From the NCBI GenBank assembly GCA_016185505.1, contig JACPNL010000011.1, positions 1-14,466 on the forward strand: DNA of 14,466 nt, read 5' to 3'. The stretch is from Candidatus Yanofskybacteria bacterium (GTDB lineage: Bacteria > Patescibacteriota > Minisyncoccia > 2-02-FULL-40-12 > GWA2-44-9). Below, in pieces: positions 3,889 to 14,466 of this stretch (positions are counted from its first letter, which is position 1; each line of letters begins with the position of its first letter). A program made the position numbers and the translations under genes. Under the pieces are notes generated by a model. The model worked only from the letters and a program-made list of their open reading frames with translations, made no database searches and had not been told where the DNA came from.

Positions 3889-4040
3889 TGTTGACGGAAA
3901 AGTTAAAAGGCCTATTGTATATTCAGTTGCCTTGACATCGACTGGAGACGGCCATTTCTTCCAACGCTACTTGCGAGGATTCTTCGCTAAAAACAAAGAA
4001 GAACAACCTGAAGAGATTTTATCGCGAAAACTTCCCCGGT

Positions 4041-4595
4041 TTGAAAATTCATCATCTTATACCTCGTAGCCGGGGCGGACAGACAGATTATTTTACTCTT
4101 TTCCCTTGGGATTTTATAAGTCACGATGCTTGGCATCAGCTTTTTTTAAATATGACCATTCAAGAGGTCTGGAATCGATTAGATGAAATTTATGCGGCTA
4201 TTTACTCGGAAGCAGAAATGGTTGTTCCATTTTGGGTGGGGGTCTGTACTCTTTACAAAGTCAGTCCCAAGAAACTCGCCAAATTTGAAGAACAAAAAAG
4301 AGATAAGCTCTCGTGGCCGGTAAGCGTCATTAAACTTCGGGATTTGTGGTTTAAGTGTTTTCGGAGTGATAATCTTGCGGATGCCAGGTCATTATTGTTG
4401 TATATGGCAATGTTTATGTTGTTTGGGTCCAAAATGATTGACCCTGAATCAATAAGCCAAGCTGACGCAGAATCACTGTTATCCCAAATACCTGATTTGC
4501 AGGATTATCAGCGTTGGGCGGTGAGCGTGTGCTTTAATCACGGCGTTAGTTCTATTTTTTCAAAAATCAACGAGTTTTATCTTGGCTCTCTTTAA
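4041..4595 (+). CDS. HNH-nuclease-motif protein (HHLIPRSRGG ... HDAWHQLF); start uncertain (TTG), possibly N-terminally degraded
   Basis: The HH-x-IP-x-S-x-GG plus H-x-AWH-x-LF pattern is typical of a small HNH (His-Me finger) family. The frame is open back to 3936 but has no ATG or GTG, so the TTG at 4041 was used. Confidence 0.4.
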   Translation: MKIHHLIPRSRGGQTDYFTLFPWDFISHDAWHQLFLNMTIQEVWNRLDEIYAAIYSEAEMVVPFWVGVCTLYKVSPKKLAKFEEQKRDKLSWPVSVIKLRDLWFKCFRSDNLADARSLLLYMAMFMLFGSKMIDPESISQADAESLLSQIPDLQDYQRWAVSVCFNHGVSSIFSKINEFYLGSL

Positions 4596-4611
4596 CGAGA
4601 GTTTTTTATTT
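4584..4611 (+). terminator. Rho-independent terminator (stop codon inside hairpin loop)
   Basis: CTCTC / GAGAG stem around the TAA, followed by TTTTTTATTTT. Confidence 0.5.
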
Positions 4612-4641
4612 TCAAGATTTATGTGGTAATATTCATATATT

Positions 4642-5142
4642 ATGGATATCGGGCGGCCACAACCAAATGACGAACCGAAACAGAGCGCAGAATTGTACCC
4701 TGCGGAATTTGCCGTTAGCAAAGTCGAAGCATCGCGGTTGCTTAAAAATTCAGGCCTGCCTTGGCTTTTGATAGTTCTGGTACTGGTACTTTTGGCTTTA
4801 TCTGTAAACATATTTAGACAGCCCGTTGCCTCGGATACGTCCGGTACTATCAGTTCATCTGTCGGGCCGACACCGGCGGTTCAGCCGAGGGTCTATACTG
4901 TTTCTTACAGGAACGGTGTTTTCAGTCCCACGAATCTAAGAATTCACGCCGGCGATACGGTGAGATTCAAGAATGAGAGTATATTTCCCATAAGAATAGT
5001 CGGAGACGATCTGGTCGGTTTCGATAGTATTGGTGACGTGCCCCAAGGAAGTTTTTTTGCTTTTACTTTTGCCGCTAGGGGAATATTCAGCTATCATAAT
5101 GAGAAGAGTCTCGACGAATCAGCTACGATAATAGTTCGATAA
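4642..5142 (+). CDS. Membrane-anchored cupredoxin-like (plastocyanin-fold-like) domain protein, no obvious Cu ligands
   Basis: TM helix LPWLLIVLVLVLLALSV, then a beta-rich domain YTVSYRNGVFSPTNLRIHAGDTVRFKNES...FSYH that resembles cupredoxin_1-like domains. The function call is weak. Confidence 0.35.
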   Translation: MDIGRPQPNDEPKQSAELYPAEFAVSKVEASRLLKNSGLPWLLIVLVLVLLALSVNIFRQPVASDTSGTISSSVGPTPAVQPRVYTVSYRNGVFSPTNLRIHAGDTVRFKNESIFPIRIVGDDLVGFDSIGDVPQGSFFAFTFAARGIFSYHNEKSLDESATIIVR

Positions 5143-5417: not shown

Positions 5418-6247
5418 TTCGATTAGGGCCCTTACTATTTATCAAGGAAGTAGTTCTTTTTGGCCTTACGCTGGCTCTTGGTCTCTATACCGCTTATTAT
5501 TACTCTTTTTACTTTACCGATCTGGTTCAGAATGGAATGGTGAATTTTACGCCGGCTGATCTGATTATTTTGGCTATTTTGTTCGTCGCTATTTTCTTTG
5601 TGGCGCGGCACAAGAGGGTTGCCCGCTTTTCCTTCAGGTTCTTTCTTATATTGATCGTCTTTTCCGGAACTCAAGTTGTGTTGGGCACTATTCTGCCTTC
5701 GCCTTGGGACTTGTTGTTTGCGGTTATCTTTACTTTAATATTCTCTATCGGTATTAATGTGTTGGTTCACAATCTAGGTATTATTCTTGGAATTGCCGGT
5801 ATTGCGGCTGTATTCGGTCTCTCTATTTCAATTGAGTTCGGGCTTGTCCTGTTGGTTGTTCTTTCTTTATATGACATAGTGGCCGTTTATGTGACAAAGC
5901 ACATGGTGACTATGGCCAGAAGTATGGTCGAAGGCGGTGCGGTGTTTGGATTTTTAATTCCGTTTGAGTTCAAAGGATTTTTTTATGGAAGAGATGAGGC
6001 AAAGGCCGGAATAGGGGAGAATTTCATGATACTTGGTTCGGGAGATATCGGATTGCCGCTTATTTTTGCGGTTTCTCTGGTTAGGGTTTCTCTGATATCC
6101 GCGATAATTACGGCCACATTCTCTTTGCTGGGATTATTTATTACTCACCTTCTTTTTATAAACCAAGGACAGCGAAGGGCAATGGCGGCTTTGCCACCGA
6201 TCGCGACACTTACAATAATTGGTTACCTTGTAACCCAATTATTGTAA
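5414..6247 (+). CDS. Polytopic membrane protein, presenilin / signal-peptide-peptidase-like (A22 family-like) intramembrane aspartyl protease candidate
   Basis: About 8 TM segments. Candidate catalytic motifs sit in TM helices: LSLYDIVAVY (YD), ILGSGDIGLPLIF (GxGD) and AALPPIA (PAL-like). Confidence 0.45.
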   Translation: MIRLGPLLFIKEVVLFGLTLALGLYTAYYYSFYFTDLVQNGMVNFTPADLIILAILFVAIFFVARHKRVARFSFRFFLILIVFSGTQVVLGTILPSPWDLLFAVIFTLIFSIGINVLVHNLGIILGIAGIAAVFGLSISIEFGLVLLVVLSLYDIVAVYVTKHMVTMARSMVEGGAVFGFLIPFEFKGFFYGRDEAKAGIGENFMILGSGDIGLPLIFAVSLVRVSLISAIITATFSLLGLFITHLLFINQGQRRAMAALPPIATLTIIGYLVTQLL

Positions 6248-6388
6248 ATTGACCTAATTATACTAATTAACCTAATTATTCTAAATAATGCCCAATACCT
6301 AATCACCAAATGCCTAAAACAGCTTGGTCATTCGGTCATTAGAATTTATTTAGGTCAATTAGATTAATTAGAACAATTAGAATAATTT
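6248..6388. repeat. About 140-bp AT-rich palindromic intergenic element (copy A) built from 9-bp TAATTNNNC units in inverted arms; MITE-like
   Basis: Left arm ttgacc taattatac taattaacc taattattc taaataat. Right arm atttattta ggtcaatta gattaatta gaacaatta gaataatt. Strongly similar to 13350-13495. It directly abuts the ATG at 6389. Confidence 0.7.
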
Positions 6389-7804
6389 ATGAAACTTACT
6401 TTCTATGGTGGTGCTCGCCAAGTGACCGGAGCCAACTACTTGTTGGAGTTGGGCCCCGACGCAAGGTCGGGGTCAACAACCAAGTTGTTGGTTGATTGCG
6501 GGATGTTTCAGGGTTCAAGGTATGCGGAAGACCTGAACTATGAAAAATTTCCATATGATCCGGCGGAGATTAATTTTATTTTTATCACTCATAGTCATAC
6601 CGACCACGCTGGACGCTTGCCCAAGTTGTATAAAGAAGGATTCAGGGGCAAGGTCGTTGCGACAAACGCGACCCTTGATCTTATCAGAAAAGCTCTGCCG
6701 GACAACTTAAGATTGATAGAACAAGAAGCAAAAGATACTGGACGAGAACCACTGTTCTCTCTTGAGAACTTGGAAGGTGTTCTTAATTTGGTTCAGGGAG
6801 TTGATTATGAGGAAAATATTGAATTAGGTGGTGGTCTTGAAGTTAAATTACATGATGCCGGACACATATTGGGTTCTTCCATCGTGGAAATACGATGGAA
6901 GAACAAATCCGAAATCCGAAATCCGAAATCCGAAAATAATTCGAAACATCTTTACTTTACCGGTGATCTGGGGAATCCCCCGACACCCTTATTGAAATCG
7001 CCTTATTACCCCAATGATGCTGATTATGTCGTTATAGAGTCCGCCTACGGTTCAAGAACTCACGAGGATAAGGCCGAAAGAAAGAATATTTTACAGAAGA
7101 TCATAATTGAAACCATCCAAAGAGGTGGTGTGCTGACGATACCTTCGTTCGCGATGGAAAGAACGCAGGAACTTCTCTATGAACTCAATGGTCTGTTCAA
7201 CGACAATAAAATTCCCAAAGTACCCGTTTTTGTCGATTCTCCTCTGGCTACCAATTTGACCGAGGTGTACAGAAAGCATTCGGATTATTTCAATAAAGAA
7301 ACTATGTATATAATTAATTCCGGTGACGATATATTTAATTTTCCCGGGCTAAAATTCACTCGTACCACCGAAGAATCAAAACAGATAAACGATGTTACTC
7401 CGCCGAAGATAATAATTGCCGGCTCGGGAATGTCTACCGGCGGCCGGATATTGCATCACGAAAGGCGTTATCTGCAGGATCCGAATTCCACTATTCTGTT
7501 CATCGGTTATCAAGTAAAAGGTTCTTTGGGCAGGAGAATTTTGGATGAGGAAAAAGAGGTCAAAATATTCGGCGAAAAAGTTACCGTGAACTGCAAAGTG
7601 GAGGCGATAGGAGGATACTCCGCTCACGCCGACAGCGAAGGGCTTTTGGAATGGGTCAAAACCGCGAACAGCGAAGGTAAATTAAAAAAGGTATTTGTGG
7701 TGCAAGGCGAAGAGGATTCCTCATTGGCTCTCGCAAGAAAAATAGAAAGAGCGCTGGAAATTGATGCGGTGGTGCCGAAGCAAGGGGAAGGGTTCGAGTT
7801 GTAG
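6389..7804 (+). CDS. MBL-fold metallo-hydrolase, beta-CASP RNA-metabolising family (RNase J / CPSF-like ribonuclease)
   Basis: HSHTDHAG (HxHxDH), LVDCGMFQG, a beta-CASP region and C-terminal GGYSAHAD. 471 aa. Confidence 0.8.
   Translation: MKLTFYGGARQVTGANYLLELGPDARSGSTTKLLVDCGMFQGSRYAEDLNYEKFPYDPAEINFIFITHSHTDHAGRLPKLYKEGFRGKVVATNATLDLIRKALPDNLRLIEQEAKDTGREPLFSLENLEGVLNLVQGVDYEENIELGGGLEVKLHDAGHILGSSIVEIRWKNKSEIRNPKSENNSKHLYFTGDLGNPPTPLLKSPYYPNDADYVVIESAYGSRTHEDKAERKNILQKIIIETIQRGGVLTIPSFAMERTQELLYELNGLFNDNKIPKVPVFVDSPLATNLTEVYRKHSDYFNKETMYIINSGDDIFNFPGLKFTRTTEESKQINDVTPPKIIIAGSGMSTGGRILHHERRYLQDPNSTILFIGYQVKGSLGRRILDEEKEVKIFGEKVTVNCKVEAIGGYSAHADSEGLLEWVKTANSEGKLKKVFVVQGEEDSSLALARKIERALEIDAVVPKQGEGFEL
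6905..6932 (+). repeat. 4 x AAATCCG heptamer tandem repeat inside MBL-fold ribonuclease CDS
   Basis: aaatccg x4 (encodes SEIRNPKSE). Confidence 0.9.
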
Positions 7805-8032
7805 AGCGAAACTATCAAATAATTTTTTACGCCTTACGCTCCATTAACAAATCTTGCAATAATTTATCATTGTTCAGACAAAAATTTAGCACCCGTTCCT
7901 CCCTTCGGGATTTTCCGGCTAAATTTTTGGAAGATTACCTGAACAATTTCTAAATTATCTTGGATTTGTGATAAAGGAGCGTAAACGCTAGAAAAATTAC
8001 TTAACAGTTTCGCTCTTTGGATGCTTTGATTT
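7803..8032. repeat. Long palindromic element C1: about 40-bp inverted arms (GAGCGAAACTNNCAAATAATTTTTTANGCCTTNCGCTCC) enclosing a palindromic cargo capped by a UUCG hairpin
   Basis: Left arm 7804-7842 and right arm 7976-8015 are near reverse complements. The inner pairs ATTAACAAATCTTGCAATAATTTATCATTGTTCAG / CTGAACAATTTCTAAATTATCTTGGATTTGTGAT and AAAAATTTAGC / GCTAAATTTTT flank TCCCTTCGGGA. The start overlaps the TAG stop of the MBL gene. A second copy lies at 9695-10109. Confidence 0.7.
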
Positions 8033-8757: not shown

Positions 8758-8799
8758 TCTTGTCTCAATTTTCCTCGTACGAGGAAAATTGAGACAAGA
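8758..8799. promoter_or_regulatory. 42-bp perfect palindrome in divergent intergenic region (candidate operator / cruciform)
   Basis: TCTTGTCTCAATTTTCCTCGTA | CGAGGAAAATTGAGACAAGA is perfectly self-complementary. It lies between the minus-strand gene start (8668) and the plus-strand gene start (8909). Confidence 0.6.
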
Positions 8800-8908: not shown

Positions 8909-9631
8909 ATGACAAACGATAAAAAGGGGCAACTCAACTTGCCGGCGTCTAAATTACCGGCAGAAAAACCCAAAAAAGGGGAGGATTTTAGAAAGTCGCT
9001 TCACTGGCGGGTGTTCAGGATACTTTCCGAATTTGTGGAGGGCTGGCAGTTTTTGGCCGATTTCAAAAAGACTGTTTCGTTTTTCGGTTCTGCTAGAACT
9101 CCCGAAGGCGATAAATGGTACGAGGAAGCGCGCAAGCTTGGGAAACTGGCGGCCGAGGGAGGATTTGCGGCAGTAACCGGTGGAGGTCCCGGCATTATGG
9201 AAGCGGGCAACCGCGGCGCCGTTGAGGGCAACGGCAAGTCCATTGGCATAAACATACAACTAGAAACGGAGCAAAGAATTAACCCTTATGTGCAGGAGAG
9301 TACCGCTTTCCACTATTTTTTTGTCAGAAAAGTCATGCTGTCATTTGCCGCTCAGGCGTATGTGTTTTTTCCCGGCGGGTTGGGAACGTTAGATGAGGTG
9401 TTTGAATTGGTGACTCTCATCCAAACCAAAAAAATATCAGAAAAGATCCCCGTTGTTCTGCTTGGAAAGGACTTTTGGGAGCCGATAGACAAGCTTTTAA
9501 GAGAAAATTTTTACGAAAAATATCAGACCATTGATAAAGAAGATCTCAATATTTATAAAATAGTCGACTCCGCCGAAGAGGCATATGAACTCATCAAAAA
9601 CGCCCCACCTAGAGAGGACTGGTATTATTAG
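8909..9631 (+). CDS. LOG-family protein (cytokinin riboside 5'-monophosphate phosphoribohydrolase-like; TIGR00730 / YvdD-type)
   Basis: VTGGGPGIMEAGNRGA and FPGGLGTLDEVFE are the LOG / lysine-decarboxylase-like family motifs. About 240 aa. Confidence 0.8.
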   Translation: MTNDKKGQLNLPASKLPAEKPKKGEDFRKSLHWRVFRILSEFVEGWQFLADFKKTVSFFGSARTPEGDKWYEEARKLGKLAAEGGFAAVTGGGPGIMEAGNRGAVEGNGKSIGINIQLETEQRINPYVQESTAFHYFFVRKVMLSFAAQAYVFFPGGLGTLDEVFELVTLIQTKKISEKIPVVLLGKDFWEPIDKLLRENFYEKYQTIDKEDLNIYKIVDSAEEAYELIKNAPPREDWYY

Positions 9632-9694
9632 TTGGTCAAGCCAGCTGAGCTGGCTCAACCCCACTAAATTTTGAGAAAAGGCATACTCTTGCAG

Positions 9695-10109
9695 TAGAGC
9701 GAAACTGCCAAATAATTTTTTAGCCTTCCGCTCCAGGAGAGCAGGATTCAAACTCCCATCGTCTTGAGAGACCCAAAAATGAGATGATTTCTTTGGTGTG
9801 ACGACGAAGATGTAGTTTAACACTACTTCGAGGAGGCACAACAAAGAAAGCGTCCATTTTTGGGCTCCCCCTTGGGGCGGGGCGGACTTACTTATCTGCT
9901 TCGTTGTCCAGATTCCTTCGGAATCGAGGATCCTCGATTGCTTCGCAATCGGGACTCGTCGCTTACGTACCGTTAAGGTACGCATCACTCCTCGCGCCTC
10001 GCATATAAGCAAGTCCGCTCCCGCTCAATTGATGCGAGTTTGAATCCTGCTCTCCTACGTCAACGCTAAAAAATTATCTGACCAGTTTCACTCTCTGGAT
10101 GCTTTGATT
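9695..10109. repeat. Palindromic element C2: same outer arms as C1, carrying a different, nested cargo
   Basis: TAGAGCGAAACTGCCAAATAATTTTTTAGCCTTCCGCTCC (9695-9734) matches the C1 left arm. ACGCTAAAAAATTATCTGACCAGTTTCACTC TCTGGATGCTTTGATT (10062-10109) matches the C1 right arm and tail. Confidence 0.7.
9735..10056. mobile_element. Nested 322-bp element with perfect 21-bp terminal inverted repeats (AGGAGAGCAGGATTCAAACTC ... GAGTTTGAATCCTGCTCTCCT), highly structured interior; MITE-like or structured ncRNA
   Basis: Perfect TIR 9735-9755 / 10036-10056. The interior holds several perfect hairpins: ATTCC-TTCG-GGAAT, CGATTGC-TTCG-GCAATCG, GTACC-GTTAA-GGTAC and the CGAGGATCCTCG palindrome. No ORF. 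Confidence 0.55.
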
Positions 10110-10324
10110 CAATCGATGATGTTGGAAAGAAACAAACTATTCATTCTCAAAATTTAGAGGGGTCTCGCTCCTCAACGCTAATTTTTCCGTGTTTTCCGAT
10201 TTTTCAGCGCTTCTGTGGTTAAAATTACCCAACGGCCTCGCTCCTCGGACGTTTTTATTTAATCGACGCAACAAGGGGTCTCGCTCCTTTGTGTTGTTGT
10301 GCTTGGTATTTTTGATGGGGCAGG

Positions 10325-10354
10325 TTGACAAAGCATAGCCCAATATGCTACAAT
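10325..10354 (+). promoter_or_regulatory. Near-consensus sigma70 promoter for nfeD-flotillin operon (TTGACA - 18 bp - TGCTACAAT) with palindrome AGCATA-N6-TATGCT in spacer
   Basis: TTGACA at 10325-10330. TACAAT at 10349-10354, preceded by an extended -10 TG. Inverted repeat AGCATAGCCCAATATGCT in the spacer. Confidence 0.55.
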
Positions 10355-10440
10355 ATTTTGGAAATCTCGAGTTGCCAGAAGGGCTCTCGAGATGGCAGTT
10401 CGTTCACAACTGTGGAGAGCCACGGAGAGAGGAAGGGGAT

Positions 10441-10968
10441 ATGCCACTGTTTATCGTCGCCGGGCTCATGGGGTTCCTGTTCTTCGTTGGGGCACTGATT
10501 TTCGGTGACCACGACGTCGGGCACGACCATGACTTTGATGGCGACCATGACCATGGAGGGTCGAGCGTGTTTTCGGTCTTCAATGTGTCATGGTTTCTCA
10601 TCGGGTTCGGCGGAATGGGGGCGGTTATCAGGGCCAATGACGTGGGGATGCCCGGAAGCACGATGTCCGGTCTCGCGACCGGTATTGCTTGCTGGGGCCT
10701 CGCTTTCTGCGTCATGCACCTGCTTGCAAAACAGCAGGGTGATTCAACCGTGACAGTCGCACGCATCATGAATGCGACTGGTACGGTCGTGATGTCTATT
10801 CCCGCAAACGGGGTGGGCAAGGTCCAGTGCAGTGTGGCCGGAAGCTTGCAAGAGTTTCTGGCTCGCTCGACGACACCGGTTTCGTTGTCGGAAGGTTCTC
10901 AAGTGAGAATCGTCGGCGATGCCGGTGGTGTGTACTTGGTGGAAGCTCAAACACAAGGAGGCAGGTGA
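10441..10968 (+). CDS. NfeD-like membrane protein (short NfeD / YuaF-like, partner of SPFH-flotillin)
   Basis: Start at the ATG at 10441 behind GAGGAAGGGG. The ATG at 10345 lies inside the -10 box. Two TM helices, a His/Asp-rich loop (DHDVGHDHDFDGDHDHGG) and a C-terminal beta domain. The stop overlaps the SD of the downstream flotillin gene. Confidence 0.65.
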   Translation: MPLFIVAGLMGFLFFVGALIFGDHDVGHDHDFDGDHDHGGSSVFSVFNVSWFLIGFGGMGAVIRANDVGMPGSTMSGLATGIACWGLAFCVMHLLAKQQGDSTVTVARIMNATGTVVMSIPANGVGKVQCSVAGSLQEFLARSTTPVSLSEGSQVRIVGDAGGVYLVEAQTQGGR

Positions 10969-10969
10969 C

Positions 10970-11269
10970 ATGGAGTTTTGGAAACAGCTCTCGGCAAACC
11001 TCGGATGGGTTATCGGAACAGTCCTACTGTTCATAGCCATCCTTGGTTCTCTTCGTTACGCGGCAAGCCGGTACAAGAAAGTGCCGCCAAGCCGCGTCGG
11101 GATCATCTACGGCCGTAAGCAGATCTATGAGATCCCGCAACAGGATGGAACCGTAAAGCAGGAGAAGCTTGGATTCCGCCTGCTCACCGGCGGCGGCGCG
11201 CTTGTCCTCCCGTTCTTGGAAGACTATGCCGAGTTGGACCTAAGCGCTCGACGTGATGATCGACGCTAG
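10970..11269 (+). CDS. Flotillin (SPFH-domain, FloT/YuaG-like) N-terminal fragment - interrupted by +1 frameshift near 11243-11256
   Basis: Strong SD AAGGAGG (10954-10960). MEFWKQ...VLLFIAILG TM helix, then GRKQ...FRLLTGGGALVLPFLEDYAELDLS matching flotillin (RGGGTFVFPVFEEVEKLSLEVM). The frame then runs into RRDDRR-stop. Confidence 0.7.
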   Translation: MEFWKQLSANLGWVIGTVLLFIAILGSLRYAASRYKKVPPSRVGIIYGRKQIYEIPQQDGTVKQEKLGFRLLTGGGALVLPFLEDYAELDLSARRDDRR

Positions 11270-12701
11270 AGGCACAGCTACTGTCGTGATCGGAACCGAT
11301 ACGTCGAGTCTCATCACTGCCGCTCGCAACTTCGAAGGTAAGAAGGAACAGGATATCAACCAGATTGCCCGGGAAAACCTGGAAGGCCAACTGCGGTCGA
11401 TTCTCGGCACCTTGACGGTTGAAGACCTGATCGGTGAGCGCAAGAAGCTCAATGAGGCGGTCTTGGAAGGTGCGGAGAGTGAGCTTCTGAAGCTCGGTCT
11501 GCGCATTTCCATCCTGACCATTCAGGAGATCACTGACCAGGTTAAGTACATCGAATCGCTGGGCAAAAAGCGTACCGCCGAAGTTCAGCGGGATGCTACT
11601 ATCGGCGAAGCCGAGGCGCAAAGCAAAGCCAAGATCGCGGCAAGCAACGCCACGAAAGAAGCCGAGACTGTCGCCGCGCAGAACGAAGTCAAGATCGCCG
11701 AGGCCAAGAAGGAGCGTGACGTTCAAGTTGCGCAATTCAAGGCATTGACCGATCGCGAAAAGGCGATTGCCGAACAGGCAGGCGCCATCGCGGCGGCCGA
11801 AGCGGACAAGACAGTGCGTCAGAGGAAGGTTGAGGCCGAAGCGGCCGAGACCACTGCGCGTATCCAACTCGCCGATCAGGAGACTGCTCGTGTCGAGAAG
11901 GAACTGCAGTTCCAGGTCATCAAACCGGCCGAAGCGCAGAAGCAGGCCGCGGTTATCAGGGCCGAGGGAAACAAGCAGACAGGTATCCTCGACGCCGAAA
12001 CCAAGAAGAGGCAACAGGTCATTCAAGCTGAAGCGGCTTTCGAAGCAGCTGCCAAGCAGGCCGACGCGACTCGAACCAAGGCTGAGGCTGATGGTGATGC
12101 TGCGGCAGCAATCGGCAAGGGCGACGCCGAAGCCGTACGTCTAAAGCTCACAGCTGAAGCCGATGGCGAGAAGGCAAAGCGTCTTGCCGCCGCCACGGGT
12201 ACCGAAGCTGAACTGCGGGCGGCTGCATCCGGCAAGGAAGCAGAACTGCTTGCAGAGGCACGCGGTGCTGAAGCAAAGCTCCTCGCAGAGGCCAAGGGTA
12301 AGGAACAGCTGGCTCTCGCGCTTGCCAAACTGGATCAGACAGGCAAACTTCTACAGGTGCTCGACGCAGCCCCCAAGGTTGCAGAGGCCCTGGGCGAAGC
12401 TCTCGCCAAGGCGCTCGGGCCCGACGGCCTTGCCAACGTGTTCGGCCAGATGGCCGCTCCGCTCGGCAGTGTTGACTCGATCCGGATGTATGATTTCGGC
12501 GGGAATGGCCATAACGGTAATGGTGCCGGATCGTTGGCCAAGTATGCCAACATCACACCGGAGCTGTTCTTCAATTTCGTCTCGAAGGCGACGGCACTGG
12601 GTTTCGGGTCTTTGCTCGAGAAGGTCGGGCTGACCTCCGAGATTCTGGACGACATGACAACTTCGGTTTCAACAGGGGCCGATGCATCCGAATCGAAGTA
12701 G
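11253..12701 (+). CDS. Flotillin C-terminal portion (SPFH core, EA-rich flotillin coiled-coil repeats, C-terminal domain); continues the 10970 frame after +1 shift (frame open from 11244)
   Basis: LDVMIDARGTATVVIG...ITDQVKYIESLGKKRTAEVQRDATIGEAEAQSKAKIA aligns with B. subtilis FloT. Long AEA/EAKA repeats follow. Confidence 0.8.
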   Translation: MMIDARGTATVVIGTDTSSLITAARNFEGKKEQDINQIARENLEGQLRSILGTLTVEDLIGERKKLNEAVLEGAESELLKLGLRISILTIQEITDQVKYIESLGKKRTAEVQRDATIGEAEAQSKAKIAASNATKEAETVAAQNEVKIAEAKKERDVQVAQFKALTDREKAIAEQAGAIAAAEADKTVRQRKVEAEAAETTARIQLADQETARVEKELQFQVIKPAEAQKQAAVIRAEGNKQTGILDAETKKRQQVIQAEAAFEAAAKQADATRTKAEADGDAAAAIGKGDAEAVRLKLTAEADGEKAKRLAAATGTEAELRAAASGKEAELLAEARGAEAKLLAEAKGKEQLALALAKLDQTGKLLQVLDAAPKVAEALGEALAKALGPDGLANVFGQMAAPLGSVDSIRMYDFGGNGHNGNGAGSLAKYANITPELFFNFVSKATALGFGSLLEKVGLTSEILDDMTTSVSTGADASESK

Positions 12702-12714
12702 CTCGTTCATTCAT

Positions 12715-12748
12715 AGAGGTCGGGGTAACAACCCCGACCTCTATTCTT
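12715..12748 (+). terminator. Terminator-like 12-bp perfect hairpin after flotillin
   Basis: AGAGGTCGGGGT-AACA-ACCCCGACCTCT followed by ATTCTT (weak U-tract). Confidence 0.5.
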
Positions 12749-12764
12749 AGGAGAGGAGAAAACA

Positions 12765-13220
12765 GTGAAGTACCAACTCACAGAAGGTATTCCGGACGCT
12801 CTCGTGATTCACTGTGCCGATCCGCGTTTTCAGGAAGCCTTCAGAGCCTACCTGAAGAATGATCTCGGTATACGTATGCCGATGATCATAGCGTTGCCTG
12901 GCGTGACCAGCCACTTCGGGATGCAGATGATGTTTCCGAAGAACTGGTACACAGTAAGGTCACACCTCAAGACCATGACAGATCGTCACGATGTGGCACG
13001 AGTCGTCCTTATCAATCACGACGACTGCAAGGGCTACGCCAAGATTGCCGATAAGCTTGGTGGTCTGGTGAAAGTTCCAGAGTGGCAGCGCAAGCACCTC
13101 CATGGCCTGGCAGAGTTTATCAGAAAGGAATATCTGCCTCACGCCTCTTTTGAACTCTACCAAGCGCATATCGTTGAGAAAGGCAGTGTGCGTGAGGTCG
13201 AGTTCGAGAAAATCTTGTAG
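12765..13220 (+). CDS. Hypothetical protein with beta-carbonic-anhydrase-like CxDxR ... HxxC motif arrangement (HCADPRF ... NHDDCKGY)
   Basis: GTG start behind AGGAGAGGAG (12749-12758). 151 aa. The spacing of the Cys-Asp-Arg and His-x-x-Cys motifs resembles the zinc ligands of minimal beta-CAs. The function call is tentative. Confidence 0.5.
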   Translation: MKYQLTEGIPDALVIHCADPRFQEAFRAYLKNDLGIRMPMIIALPGVTSHFGMQMMFPKNWYTVRSHLKTMTDRHDVARVVLINHDDCKGYAKIADKLGGLVKVPEWQRKHLHGLAEFIRKEYLPHASFELYQAHIVEKGSVREVEFEKIL

Positions 13221-13263
13221 GTTCTACGCCGCCGGTCTGATACTTACAACGGCTAACGCCGAC

Positions 13264-13312
13264 GCCCCCTTCGGGGGCCAGAGGGGGACACGTGTCCCCC
13301 TTTTAATTTTTT
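13264..13312 (+). terminator. Tandem intrinsic terminators (CCCCC-UUCG-GGGGG hairpin, then GGGGGACAC/GTGTCCCCC perfect hairpin + TTTTAATTTTTT)
   Basis: 13264-13278 GCCCCCTTCGGGGGC. 13283-13300 is a perfect 18-bp palindrome followed by a T-run. Confidence 0.8.
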
Positions 13313-13349
13313 AAAAAGTGTGATAATATAAATACAAAATATAAACACC

Positions 13350-13495
13350 CCCAATTATTCTAATTATACTAATTATTCTAATTACTCTAAATAATGACTA
13401 ATCCCCAATCATTAAATGACCAAATCGATTTAGTCATTGAGTCGTTGGGATTTATTTAGGTCAATTAGGTTAATTAGAATAATTAGGTTAATTTA
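13350..13495. repeat. Copy B of the about 140-bp TAATTNNNC-unit palindromic element (see 6248-6388)
   Basis: ctaattatactaattattctaattactctaaataatg ... atttatttaggtcaattaggttaattagaataattaggttaatt. The central part contains the near-perfect palindrome AATGACCAAATCGATTTAGTCATT. Confidence 0.7.
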
Positions 13496-13537
13496 TTGCC
13501 CTGTTTGGTTCCTGTGCTTTGTGTTTTAGCTATGTAA

Positions 13538-14466
13538 GATTTTAAAATCAACAACATCCTTATCCCCGAAGAGCTTCCTCTTATCGCTCTGAAAAACACC
13601 GTCTTATTCCCAAAGGCGGTTATTCCGCTTATCGTTCAGCGGCCCAAATCGGTCAGCGCTTTGGAGTACGCTCATTTAACTGATCGGCTGGTGTTTTTTG
13701 CCACCCAGAGAAGCACCGAAGACGATGTGAACAAAAAAGATATTTTCACTGTGAACAAAAAAGATATTTTCACTACCGGCGTTATCGGCAGGATAATCTC
13801 CGTTCTCAAATTACCCGACGGTTCTTCCAAAGTTGATGTTGAGGGTTTGGTCAGAGCAAGGATAACGGAAATTACCAACGAAGAACCATTCTTCAGGATA
13901 AAGGCCGCTCCGTTCTCGTTGACGGTCAGGGATAGTTTAGAAGAAAAAGCGCTCCTTCGGAAAGCCATAGAGCAGTTTCGAATGATCTCGGAAGTAAGAG
14001 CATTTCCAACAATCCTTCCCGAAATTATATATATGATGTCGCAGATCAAAGACACCGAGCATATTATAAGTTTGATGGCGGTTAATTCCGGTTTAGAAAT
14101 AGAAGATCAGCAAAATGTCCTTGAAATGGAGAGCGCGATAGACGCCTTACGCCAACTAAACACGTATCTGGCCAGAGAGTCGGAATTATTGGAAGCCGAG
14201 AAAAAAGTCGCTAAGGAAACCAAAAAACAACTCGGCAAGATGCAGAAGGAATTGTTTTTGCGGGAGCAACTCAAAAGCATAGAGAAAGAATTGGGCGTTG
14301 ATGACGAGAAAGGCGAAATGGAAACGATAAAACACAAGATAGCCGCCGCGGGAATGCCCAAAGAAGTTGAAGAAAAGGCAAGCAAAGAACTTCATCGTCT
14401 AGGCAAAATGCCGCCATTCAATCCCGAGGTCTCATATCTTCGCACCTATCTTGACTTGATGGTTGA
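13538..14466 (+). CDS. lon: ATP-dependent Lon protease, N-terminal (LON substrate-binding) domain onward; 3' partial (runs off window); start codon unresolved
   Basis: LPLIALKNTVLFPKAVIPLIVQRPKSV ... LKLPDGSSKVDVEGLVRARI is the canonical Lon N-domain. The frame is open from 13538 to the window end. There is no in-frame ATG, GTG or TTG before the LPL motif. The ATG at 13532 is followed immediately by TAA. Confidence 0.8.
13727..13774 (+). repeat. Perfect 24-bp tandem duplication inside lon (VNKKDIFT x2)
   Basis: gtgaacaaaaaagatattttcact occurs twice in direct tandem. Confidence 0.9.

Follow-up and report, generated by a model that had tools for sequence, protein, structure and literature searches.

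The window, by which we mean the whole stretch of DNA analysed, is a complete contig of 14,466 bp from a fragmentary MAG of Candidatus Yanofskybacteria (CPR/Patescibacteria). Its genes are ordinary chromosomal ones, encoding FemAB, a Mur ligase, a signal-peptide peptidase, a beta-CASP nuclease, LOG and Lon. In related loci Lon follows LOG at a spacing of 94-720 nt (L001, L002-5, L006-8, L026). The LOG-Lon interval of the window holds about 3.9 kb of extra DNA (9640-13537) that is absent in all relatives examined. The core of this insert (~10400-12800) has a GC content of 55-61%, as against ~42% elsewhere, and the insert codes for a 207-aa protein that matches nothing in Pfam, an SPFH/Band_7 protein of 482 aa and a Pro_CA_2 protein of 151 aa. 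At 10325-10354 there is a promoter-like site close to consensus. The insert has the look of DNA acquired horizontally, with repeat elements at its bounds. Other repeats are scattered over the contig: a 21+21 palindrome without mismatches in the spacer that precedes LOG (8758-8799), a 22+22 palindrome (95%) within the FemAB ORF (497-540), an in-frame exact 24-nt tandem duplication in the Lon coding region (13726-13773), and a 31-nt inverted repeat (94%; 1365-1395 with 1868-1898) that brackets a Trp-repressor-like ORF (1417-1854).

The element studied here lies between LOG and the core of the insert. An earlier note, made from the letters alone, had described a 322-bp region (9735-10056) bounded by perfect 21-bp terminal inverted repeats, and the repeats were confirmed (21/21 exact). 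The repeat, AGGAGAGCAGGATTCAAACTC, occurs at 9735-9755 (+) and 10036-10056 (-) and at no other window site, even when 3 mismatches are allowed, and two such matches appeared in 0/200 shuffles (randomised-sequence control). The inverted repeat stretches to 26 nt at 96%. The nesting proposed by the same note was also found: further inverted repeats (9709-9727/10062-10080, 9696-9707/10083-10094 and 9658-9677/10144-10163) surround the element. The features of the region are as follows.

8909-9631: LOG gene (TIGR00730); its protein is 100% identical to NCBI MBI2674438.1.
7801-8031, plus strand: second window copy of the inner enclosing hairpin; its 134-nt interior is unrelated, and it holds no MITE.
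9653-9734, plus strand: left arms of the older enclosing palindromic repeats (outer 9653-9693, inner 9694-9734).
9734-9735, no strand: left junction dinucleotide CA, taken as a degenerate TA target duplication; the other three known junctions of the family are TA.
9736-9755, plus strand: left terminal inverted repeat GGAGAGCAGGATTCAAACTC, with an imperfect extension to 9760; exact reverse complement of 10036-10055.
9764-9868, plus strand: end-module hairpin 1, ~100 nt, from the fold; kept in the second copy with compensatory double changes.
9800-9809 opposite 9829-9836: apex of hairpin 1, purine-rich GAN repeats, GACGACGAAG opposite CGAGGAGG.
9868-9876, plus strand: central mini-hairpin CCC-CUU-GGG between the end modules, in both copies; a counterpart, CCCUUCGGG, is central in the L001 relative.
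9877-10024, minus strand: end-module hairpin 2, inverted counterpart of hairpin 1; the hairpin-1 model matches on the opposite strand.
9907-9954, no strand: 48-nt block of three overlapping palindromes centred on GGATCC, containing both supposed UUCG loops; window copy only.
10036-10055, minus strand: right terminal inverted repeat, an exact match to the left one.
10056-10057, no strand: right junction TA (target duplication), from the sequence and from comparison with the L017+L011 junctions.
10058-10172, plus strand: right arms of the enclosing repeats (inner 10058-10109, outer 10110-10172).

The interior of the element is organised around its two ends. A covariance model built from hairpin 1 was run on the window and on the related loci. 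On the opposite strand it matched the second arm of the other known copy (L017 5368-5469, 31.5 bits, E 9e-6), gave a weak match to window 9955-9993(-), and matched L001 722-821(-) with 45.8 bits (E 1.4e-9). The opposite-strand match to the second arm shows the element to be two inverted copies of one end module. Such two-fold symmetry, here with a terminal repeat and a ~100-nt hairpin on either side, is what one expects of transposon ends. Because the two ends are inverted copies joined by a mini-hairpin, the element folds very strongly on either strand; the 322 nt reach -158.5 (+) and -163.5 (-) kcal/mol (z = -15.0 and -11.1), and the enclosing 541-nt region gives z = -13 and -15.

A second copy of the element exists at an unrelated locus in another Yanofskybacteria genome. 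The exact 20-mer of the terminal repeat gave 0 matches in 185,579 representative genomes, 0 in viral contigs, and two in the JGI metagenomes (L009 and L010), one of them true. We considered L010 as a further copy and take its match as chance: it is a high-GC contig with no partner repeat and an unrelated interior, and by a rough estimate about one chance 20-mer match is expected at that collection size. In L009, homology opens exactly at AGGAGAGC after an unrelated upstream flank, and the contig stops 167 nt in. The other half of this copy was found via the neighbouring genes, L011 being the same locus and L017 to L020 being reached through the far-side gene; P0148 led to the right half, and the loci reached via P0146 and P0142 were without the element. 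Rebuilt from L017 and L011, which share an exact 141-nt overlap, with the join bridged by L019 from another sample, the second copy is 270 nt long and has a mean column identity of 84% to the window copy (82% over aligned positions). Homology runs exactly from GGAGAG to CTCTCC (right end ...CCTGCTCTCC), opening at the left terminal repeat, and the flanks are unrelated: the ends of the element are fixed at its terminal repeats in two unrelated contexts. One terminal repeat of the second copy carries 3 mismatches. Both copies have the terminal stem, the ~100-nt hairpin, a CCC-NNN-GGG mini-hairpin and a second long hairpin, and the 48-nt block of the window copy (alignment columns 173-220) is represented by gaps in the second.

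These are the two known loci, in two genomes. No further copies were seen in about 210 kb of related Yanofskybacteria DNA, nor through P0147 or, with wider flanks, P0004, and a scan of genomes for the outer-arm pattern gave 0 matches. The nearest relatives of the window (L001 and L026, with LOG proteins 90-93% identical) have nothing resembling the element downstream of LOG. As the LOG-to-Lon gap of relatives is so short and the LOG-Lon insert is extra in the window, the element is not a conserved syntenic gene. The contigs L009 and L011, from two assemblies, end inside the second copy at the same base; the L017/L011 overlap is exactly k = 141, and L019 has a strain SNP (A/G) just before the break, which probably causes the branch in the assembly graph. 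Elements like this one fragment CPR assemblies.

The second copy also preserves its insertion footprint. It stands directly after the stop codon of a 397-aa gene and before the intrinsic terminator of that gene. The empty orthologous site, in L012, reads '...tatccc TAA ccgcgcgccaacgcggtttttt' (in short form cccTAAccgcgcg), and the filled site, in L017+L011, reads '...agtcct TA[GGAGAGTAGG...CCTGCTCTCC]TA accgcgcgtttgacgcggtttttt' (in short form cctTA[element]TAaccgcgcg), with the orthologous terminator present after it. Three more species (L015, L016, L021-23) lack the element at the site orthologous to that of L017. The TA that stands on both sides of the element is part of the ancestral TAA stop, and the new junction restores the stop, turning TAA into TAG. 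An insertion between stop codon and terminator that regenerates the stop is a neat case of a tolerated insertion site. Insertion at TA with duplication of the TA is the established behaviour of IS630-family and Tc1/mariner elements in bacteria (PMC2170065).

The junctions of the window copy, CA on the left and TA on the right, are half intact. Some products of ISY100, of the IS630 family, have TA on one side and A only on the other (PMC2170065). The host hairpin at the window site is without its apex and its 3' GGAGCG, both of which are present in the sister copy at 7801-8031, so a deletion beside the left end is as possible as a one-sided 'A only' insertion.

We conclude that window 9736-10055 is, with good confidence, a MITE whose transposase is encoded elsewhere and most likely belongs to the IS630/Tc1-mariner type. 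The suggestion in the earlier note that it is a non-autonomous mobile element is borne out by a second copy with identical boundaries at an unrelated locus, and by the filled and empty sites that reveal the TA duplication. At 322 and 270 nt, with no transposase or conserved ORF, the two copies lie within the size of under ~600 bp that marks MITEs; terminal repeats define the ends, and the target duplication is seen by comparing filled with empty sites. In the proposed mechanism, this enzyme would cut and paste the element at TA, duplicating the TA. Each end of the element has a 20-26-bp terminal repeat followed by a ~100-nt hairpin-forming module. We infer the family of this transposase from the 2-bp TA duplication alone. 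The window copy would have arrived by the same route, though its left TA is now CA and the apex of the host hairpin is missing. Relative to the upstream gene, the element is in opposite orientation at its two sites. Co-transcribed in a 3' UTR, it might act as a stable RNA hairpin, by analogy with other bacterial MITEs.

The literature already describes, as a class, bacterial MITEs that have terminal repeats, end in TA and give transcripts with long stem-loops (PMC2170065, PMC2229807). At 270-322 bp and with a branched fold, the element exceeds the 100-200-bp bacterial MITEs reviewed in PMC2229807. Pfam showed no transposase in the window, and none turned up in the related loci (about 210 kb) or their gene tables; scans of genomes, metagenomes and viral contigs gave no longer, autonomous element with the same repeat, and BLAST against phages and plasmids gave no match. 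A search of a library of papers returned no description of MITEs, IS630-type elements or structured RNAs of this sort in CPR or Yanofskybacteria. The element represents a new family of MITEs, a known kind of element, and is nested in palindromic repeats that are older and specific to the lineage.

The element is noncoding. The earlier note had reported no ORF in the region, which is right in substance and not to the letter: a minus-strand ORF of 171 aa (9497-10012) runs across the element. This ORF extends into the LOG gene, and in the second copy a TAA and an indel interrupt it; on both counts we regard the element as noncoding. The argument for function at the RNA level that the note drew from UUCG tetraloops fails. 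The TTCG strings lie in palindromes with 3-nt centres, GATTCC-TTC-GGAATC and CGATTGC-TTC-GCAATCG, which the minimum-energy fold renders as triloops closed by C-G. A cUUCGg tetraloop, in which a C-G pair surrounds a 4-nt UUCG with the stem in register, would put these stems out of register, and we rejected such hairpins. Both triloops, moreover, lie in the 48-nt block that is missing from the other copy.

Pairing in the element is nevertheless maintained between the two copies. In the two-sequence alignment, 96.4% of cells pair; 8 pairs are changed on both sides (helices 2, 3, 5 and 9), as against 0-1 in slid controls, and 1/500 shuffles reaches the observed values. Substitutions affect 31/204 paired columns (15%) and 17/66 unpaired columns (26%). 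Compensated pairing of this kind, with 8 double substitutions in local hairpins, is not predicted by the simple decay of a dead transposon. As judged from just two sequences, the pairing may be maintained by selection on RNA, by selection on folded DNA, or by arm-to-arm conversion.

Selection on RNA would fit a MITE that has also been exapted, its 3'-UTR hairpins stabilising or terminating mRNA or serving as a site for RNase III or protein binding; a selected RNA role would keep the structure. Such exaptation would be an addition to the MITE reading and not an exclusive alternative, and we consider it possible but rather doubtful. The L017 copy, lying between a stop codon and an intrinsic terminator, must be transcribed with its gene, and the two-sided pair changes, the near-complete pairing and the lower substitution rate in paired columns all point the same way. 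The GAN-repeat motif of the apex is kept even in a relative with different termini, and RNA-level roles are documented for the Correia/NEMIS and ERIC elements (PMC2229807). Against this, the transcribed strand differs between the two sites, and the fold energies have no consistent strand preference (-119.5 vs -115.0 kcal/mol in the second copy, -158.5 vs -163.5 in the window). The structure was defined on the window copy. In the other copy, 6 pairs are G-U when read on the window plus strand and 1 is A-C; two of those six are G-U in the window copy as well, leaving an independent count of 4 to 1, which is not significant. Finally, the comparison involves two sequences only, and arm-to-arm gene conversion in palindromes can mimic compensatory change.

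The element might instead be mobile through an enzyme outside the IS630 group, either of the IS5 group (2-3-bp duplications) or one that reads folded single-stranded end hairpins, which we judge unlikely. No cognate transposase was found, and what the element has in common with its L001 relative is the hairpin core and not the termini (GGAGAGCAGG... vs GACCCCTAAATT...), which would be unusual if only terminal repeats were read. Hairpin-dependent elements of the IS200/IS605 type, as the ISfinder family is defined, have subterminal hairpins, no terminal inverted repeats and no target duplication. The exact terminal repeats and the TA duplication led us to reject an IS200/IS605-type palindrome-associated element or REP. 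The signature of IS630/Tc1-mariner is, besides, a 2-bp TA duplication at a TA target (PMC2170065).

An equally improbable proposal from sequence comparison places the functional unit in the ~100-nt hairpin core, not in the terminal repeat; some enzyme of these reduced CPR genomes would read the core in folded single-stranded form, or the core would serve as an RNA module, making the element one of a structure-specified mobile class. The core has a stem that co-varies, it is common to the window MITE and to L001 585-850 with unrelated termini, and it occurs twice per element, inverted. At its apex, where GACGACGAAG stands opposite CGAGGAGG, C-G pairs might alternate with a series of tandem G-A mismatches. 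Window 9800-9836 and L001 740-800 (minus strand), in hairpins of elements whose termini are unrelated, have the apex motif ACGACGAAG-NTGTAG...CTAC-NNCGAGGAG in common, and it is when read antiparallel that this motif could give such C-G pairs and G-A mismatches. If the hairpin core were the unit, then together with the nested palindromes it would represent a CPR-specific repeat system and not a standard IS630-type MITE.

A free-standing structured ncRNA gene, inherited vertically or occasionally transferred, with the 21-bp repeat as its closing helix, is very improbable, and the earlier note's leaning towards a structured ncRNA as the primary identity is not upheld. The extreme fold z-scores, the compensatory changes and the lack of coding potential would suit such a gene. 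The TA duplication at the filled site, the non-syntenic occurrence and the absence from the closest relatives would not, nor would opposite orientations to the host genes and a two-fold symmetric, transposon-like design that is not strand-specific. No consensus promoter match was reported for the two ends, and inspection of the flanks by eye showed none. Rfam, whose families considered included tmRNA, RNase P, 6S, HEARO, GOLLD, ROOL, OLE and group I/II introns, gave 0 matches at gathering thresholds in the window and 5 related loci; matches at E<=10 were noise (12-18 bits, against thresholds of 39-69). A tRNA/tmRNA-like reading of GGATTCAAAC was also discarded: ARAGORN found 0 tRNA/tmRNA in the window, and no T-arm could be drawn by eye. 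The dismissal of a retron in the earlier note stands, as no RT domain was found in the window ORFs scanned or in the genes beside the second copy, and the gene tables of the related loci list no reverse transcriptase.

The MITE sits within older repeats that are themselves dispersed. On the left, 9694-9735 is 91% identical to window 7801-7843, and 9653-9705 matches L006 3538-3485 (89% identity), which lies inverted at another locus. On the right, 10058-10109 is 87% identical to window 7980-8031, and 10086-10171 is 80% identical to L006 3093-3009. The outermost arms recur at L006 3009-3538 (minus strand) around a wholly different interior of ~390 nt, so the scaffold around the element is dispersed in its own right, as a repeat whose interior is hypervariable. 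At L006 5726-5775, after LOG, stands a short form that lacks the big hairpin. A candidate 2-bp duplication of the enclosing hairpin repeat (TT..TT at 7799/8032; CA..CA at 9692/10110) was dropped, because the right-hand homology with L001 runs beyond that boundary. To the immediate right of the nested hairpins there are three same-strand copies of GGGGTCTCGCTCCT (10159-10172, 10232-10245 in degenerate form, and 10275-10288), and the third copy forms a terminator-like hairpin (10271-10292). As 10221-10266 shows 89% identity to L001 4044-4089, where the right arm of the hairpin repeat lies, this region looks like decayed half-elements.

Orthologues of the enclosing hairpin (7801-8031, L001 3783-4100, L026 1-230) bear differing extra perfect palindromes, one of 56 nt at L001 ~3893-3950 and others at ~1-40 and ~75-125 in L026. 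The arm at L026 ~75-125 re-uses the flanking host AGATTA, which argues for inverted duplication or template switching rather than insertion, and the 48-nt block 9907-9954 of the MITE may have arisen in the same way. That the whole palindrome grew in place by such events, with no transposition, is the least credible of the readings and is refuted by the second copy, since the same ~270-nt sequence with the same ends lies at two unrelated loci in two genomes with the TA duplicated, which in-place growth cannot account for; it is viable only for the 48-nt block.

Two further repeats deserve mention. A second palindromic family, AT-rich and ~142 nt long, is present at window 6247-6390 and 13353-13496 (81-85% identical). 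The 6247 copy, with TA on both sides, occupies the space from the stop codon of the signal-peptide peptidase (SPP) gene to the start of the beta-CASP gene; in L001 these two genes overlap (ATGA). The repeat may be a further MITE that inserts at TA; the rebuilt empty site did not cleanly restore the frame. The L001 relative at 585-850 is a 265-nt two-hairpin element with the terminal repeat GACCCCTAAATTAATATAAA, absent from the orthologous 47-nt spacer of the window (4595-4642). Its apparent insertion point is a terminator-like hairpin, within the loop (aaggccTA|...|Accggccttttt); the flanks are TA and A.

The MITE reading settles the element as mobile DNA and not a new RNA gene, and documents recent TA-type transposition in a Candidatus Yanofskybacteria genome. 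In this lineage, nested hairpin repeats form a mosaic in the intergenic DNA; they break assemblies, and a genome scan can take them for structured RNAs.

Among named systems, RUP (repeat unit of pneumococcus) is a MITE of 107 bp and about 108 copies, thought to be mobilised by IS630-Spn1 (PMC2229807). Like RUP, the element is non-autonomous and intergenic, with terminal inverted repeats, TA insertion and a stem-loop (PMC2229807); unlike RUP, it is 270-322 bp long with a branched two-hairpin interior, has 2 known loci and no partner IS found, and lacks any sequence similarity. With the Correia/NEMIS elements of Neisseria it shares terminal repeats of ~24-26 bp, a terminal TA with TA duplication, and no known transposase (PMC2229807). 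Correia/NEMIS elements are often co-transcribed with neighbouring genes as a long hairpin, and their processing by RNase III has been shown (PMC2229807). They differ in being simple hairpins of 100-155 bp, with an IHF site and hundreds of copies. IS630/Tc1-mariner elements such as ISY100 share the TA target, the 2-bp duplication and one-sided products as at the window copy (PMC2170065). Unlike the present element, they are autonomous, over 900 bp long, and encode a DDE transposase. Stowaway elements, plant MITEs derived from Tc1/mariner, have TA duplications, terminal repeats and strong hairpin potential, and are often nested in repeats. They are eukaryotic, number in the thousands of copies and have no homology to the element. 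Within the same lineage, L001 585-850 resembles the element in its terminal stem, its ~100-nt hairpin with a ACGACGAAG...CGAGGAG apex, its CCCUUCGGG mini-hairpin and its second hairpin, and differs in an unrelated terminal repeat (GACCCCTAAATTAATATAAA) and in the sequence of the lower stems. By analogy, then, the closest counterparts of the element would be RUP, Correia/NEMIS and Stowaway.
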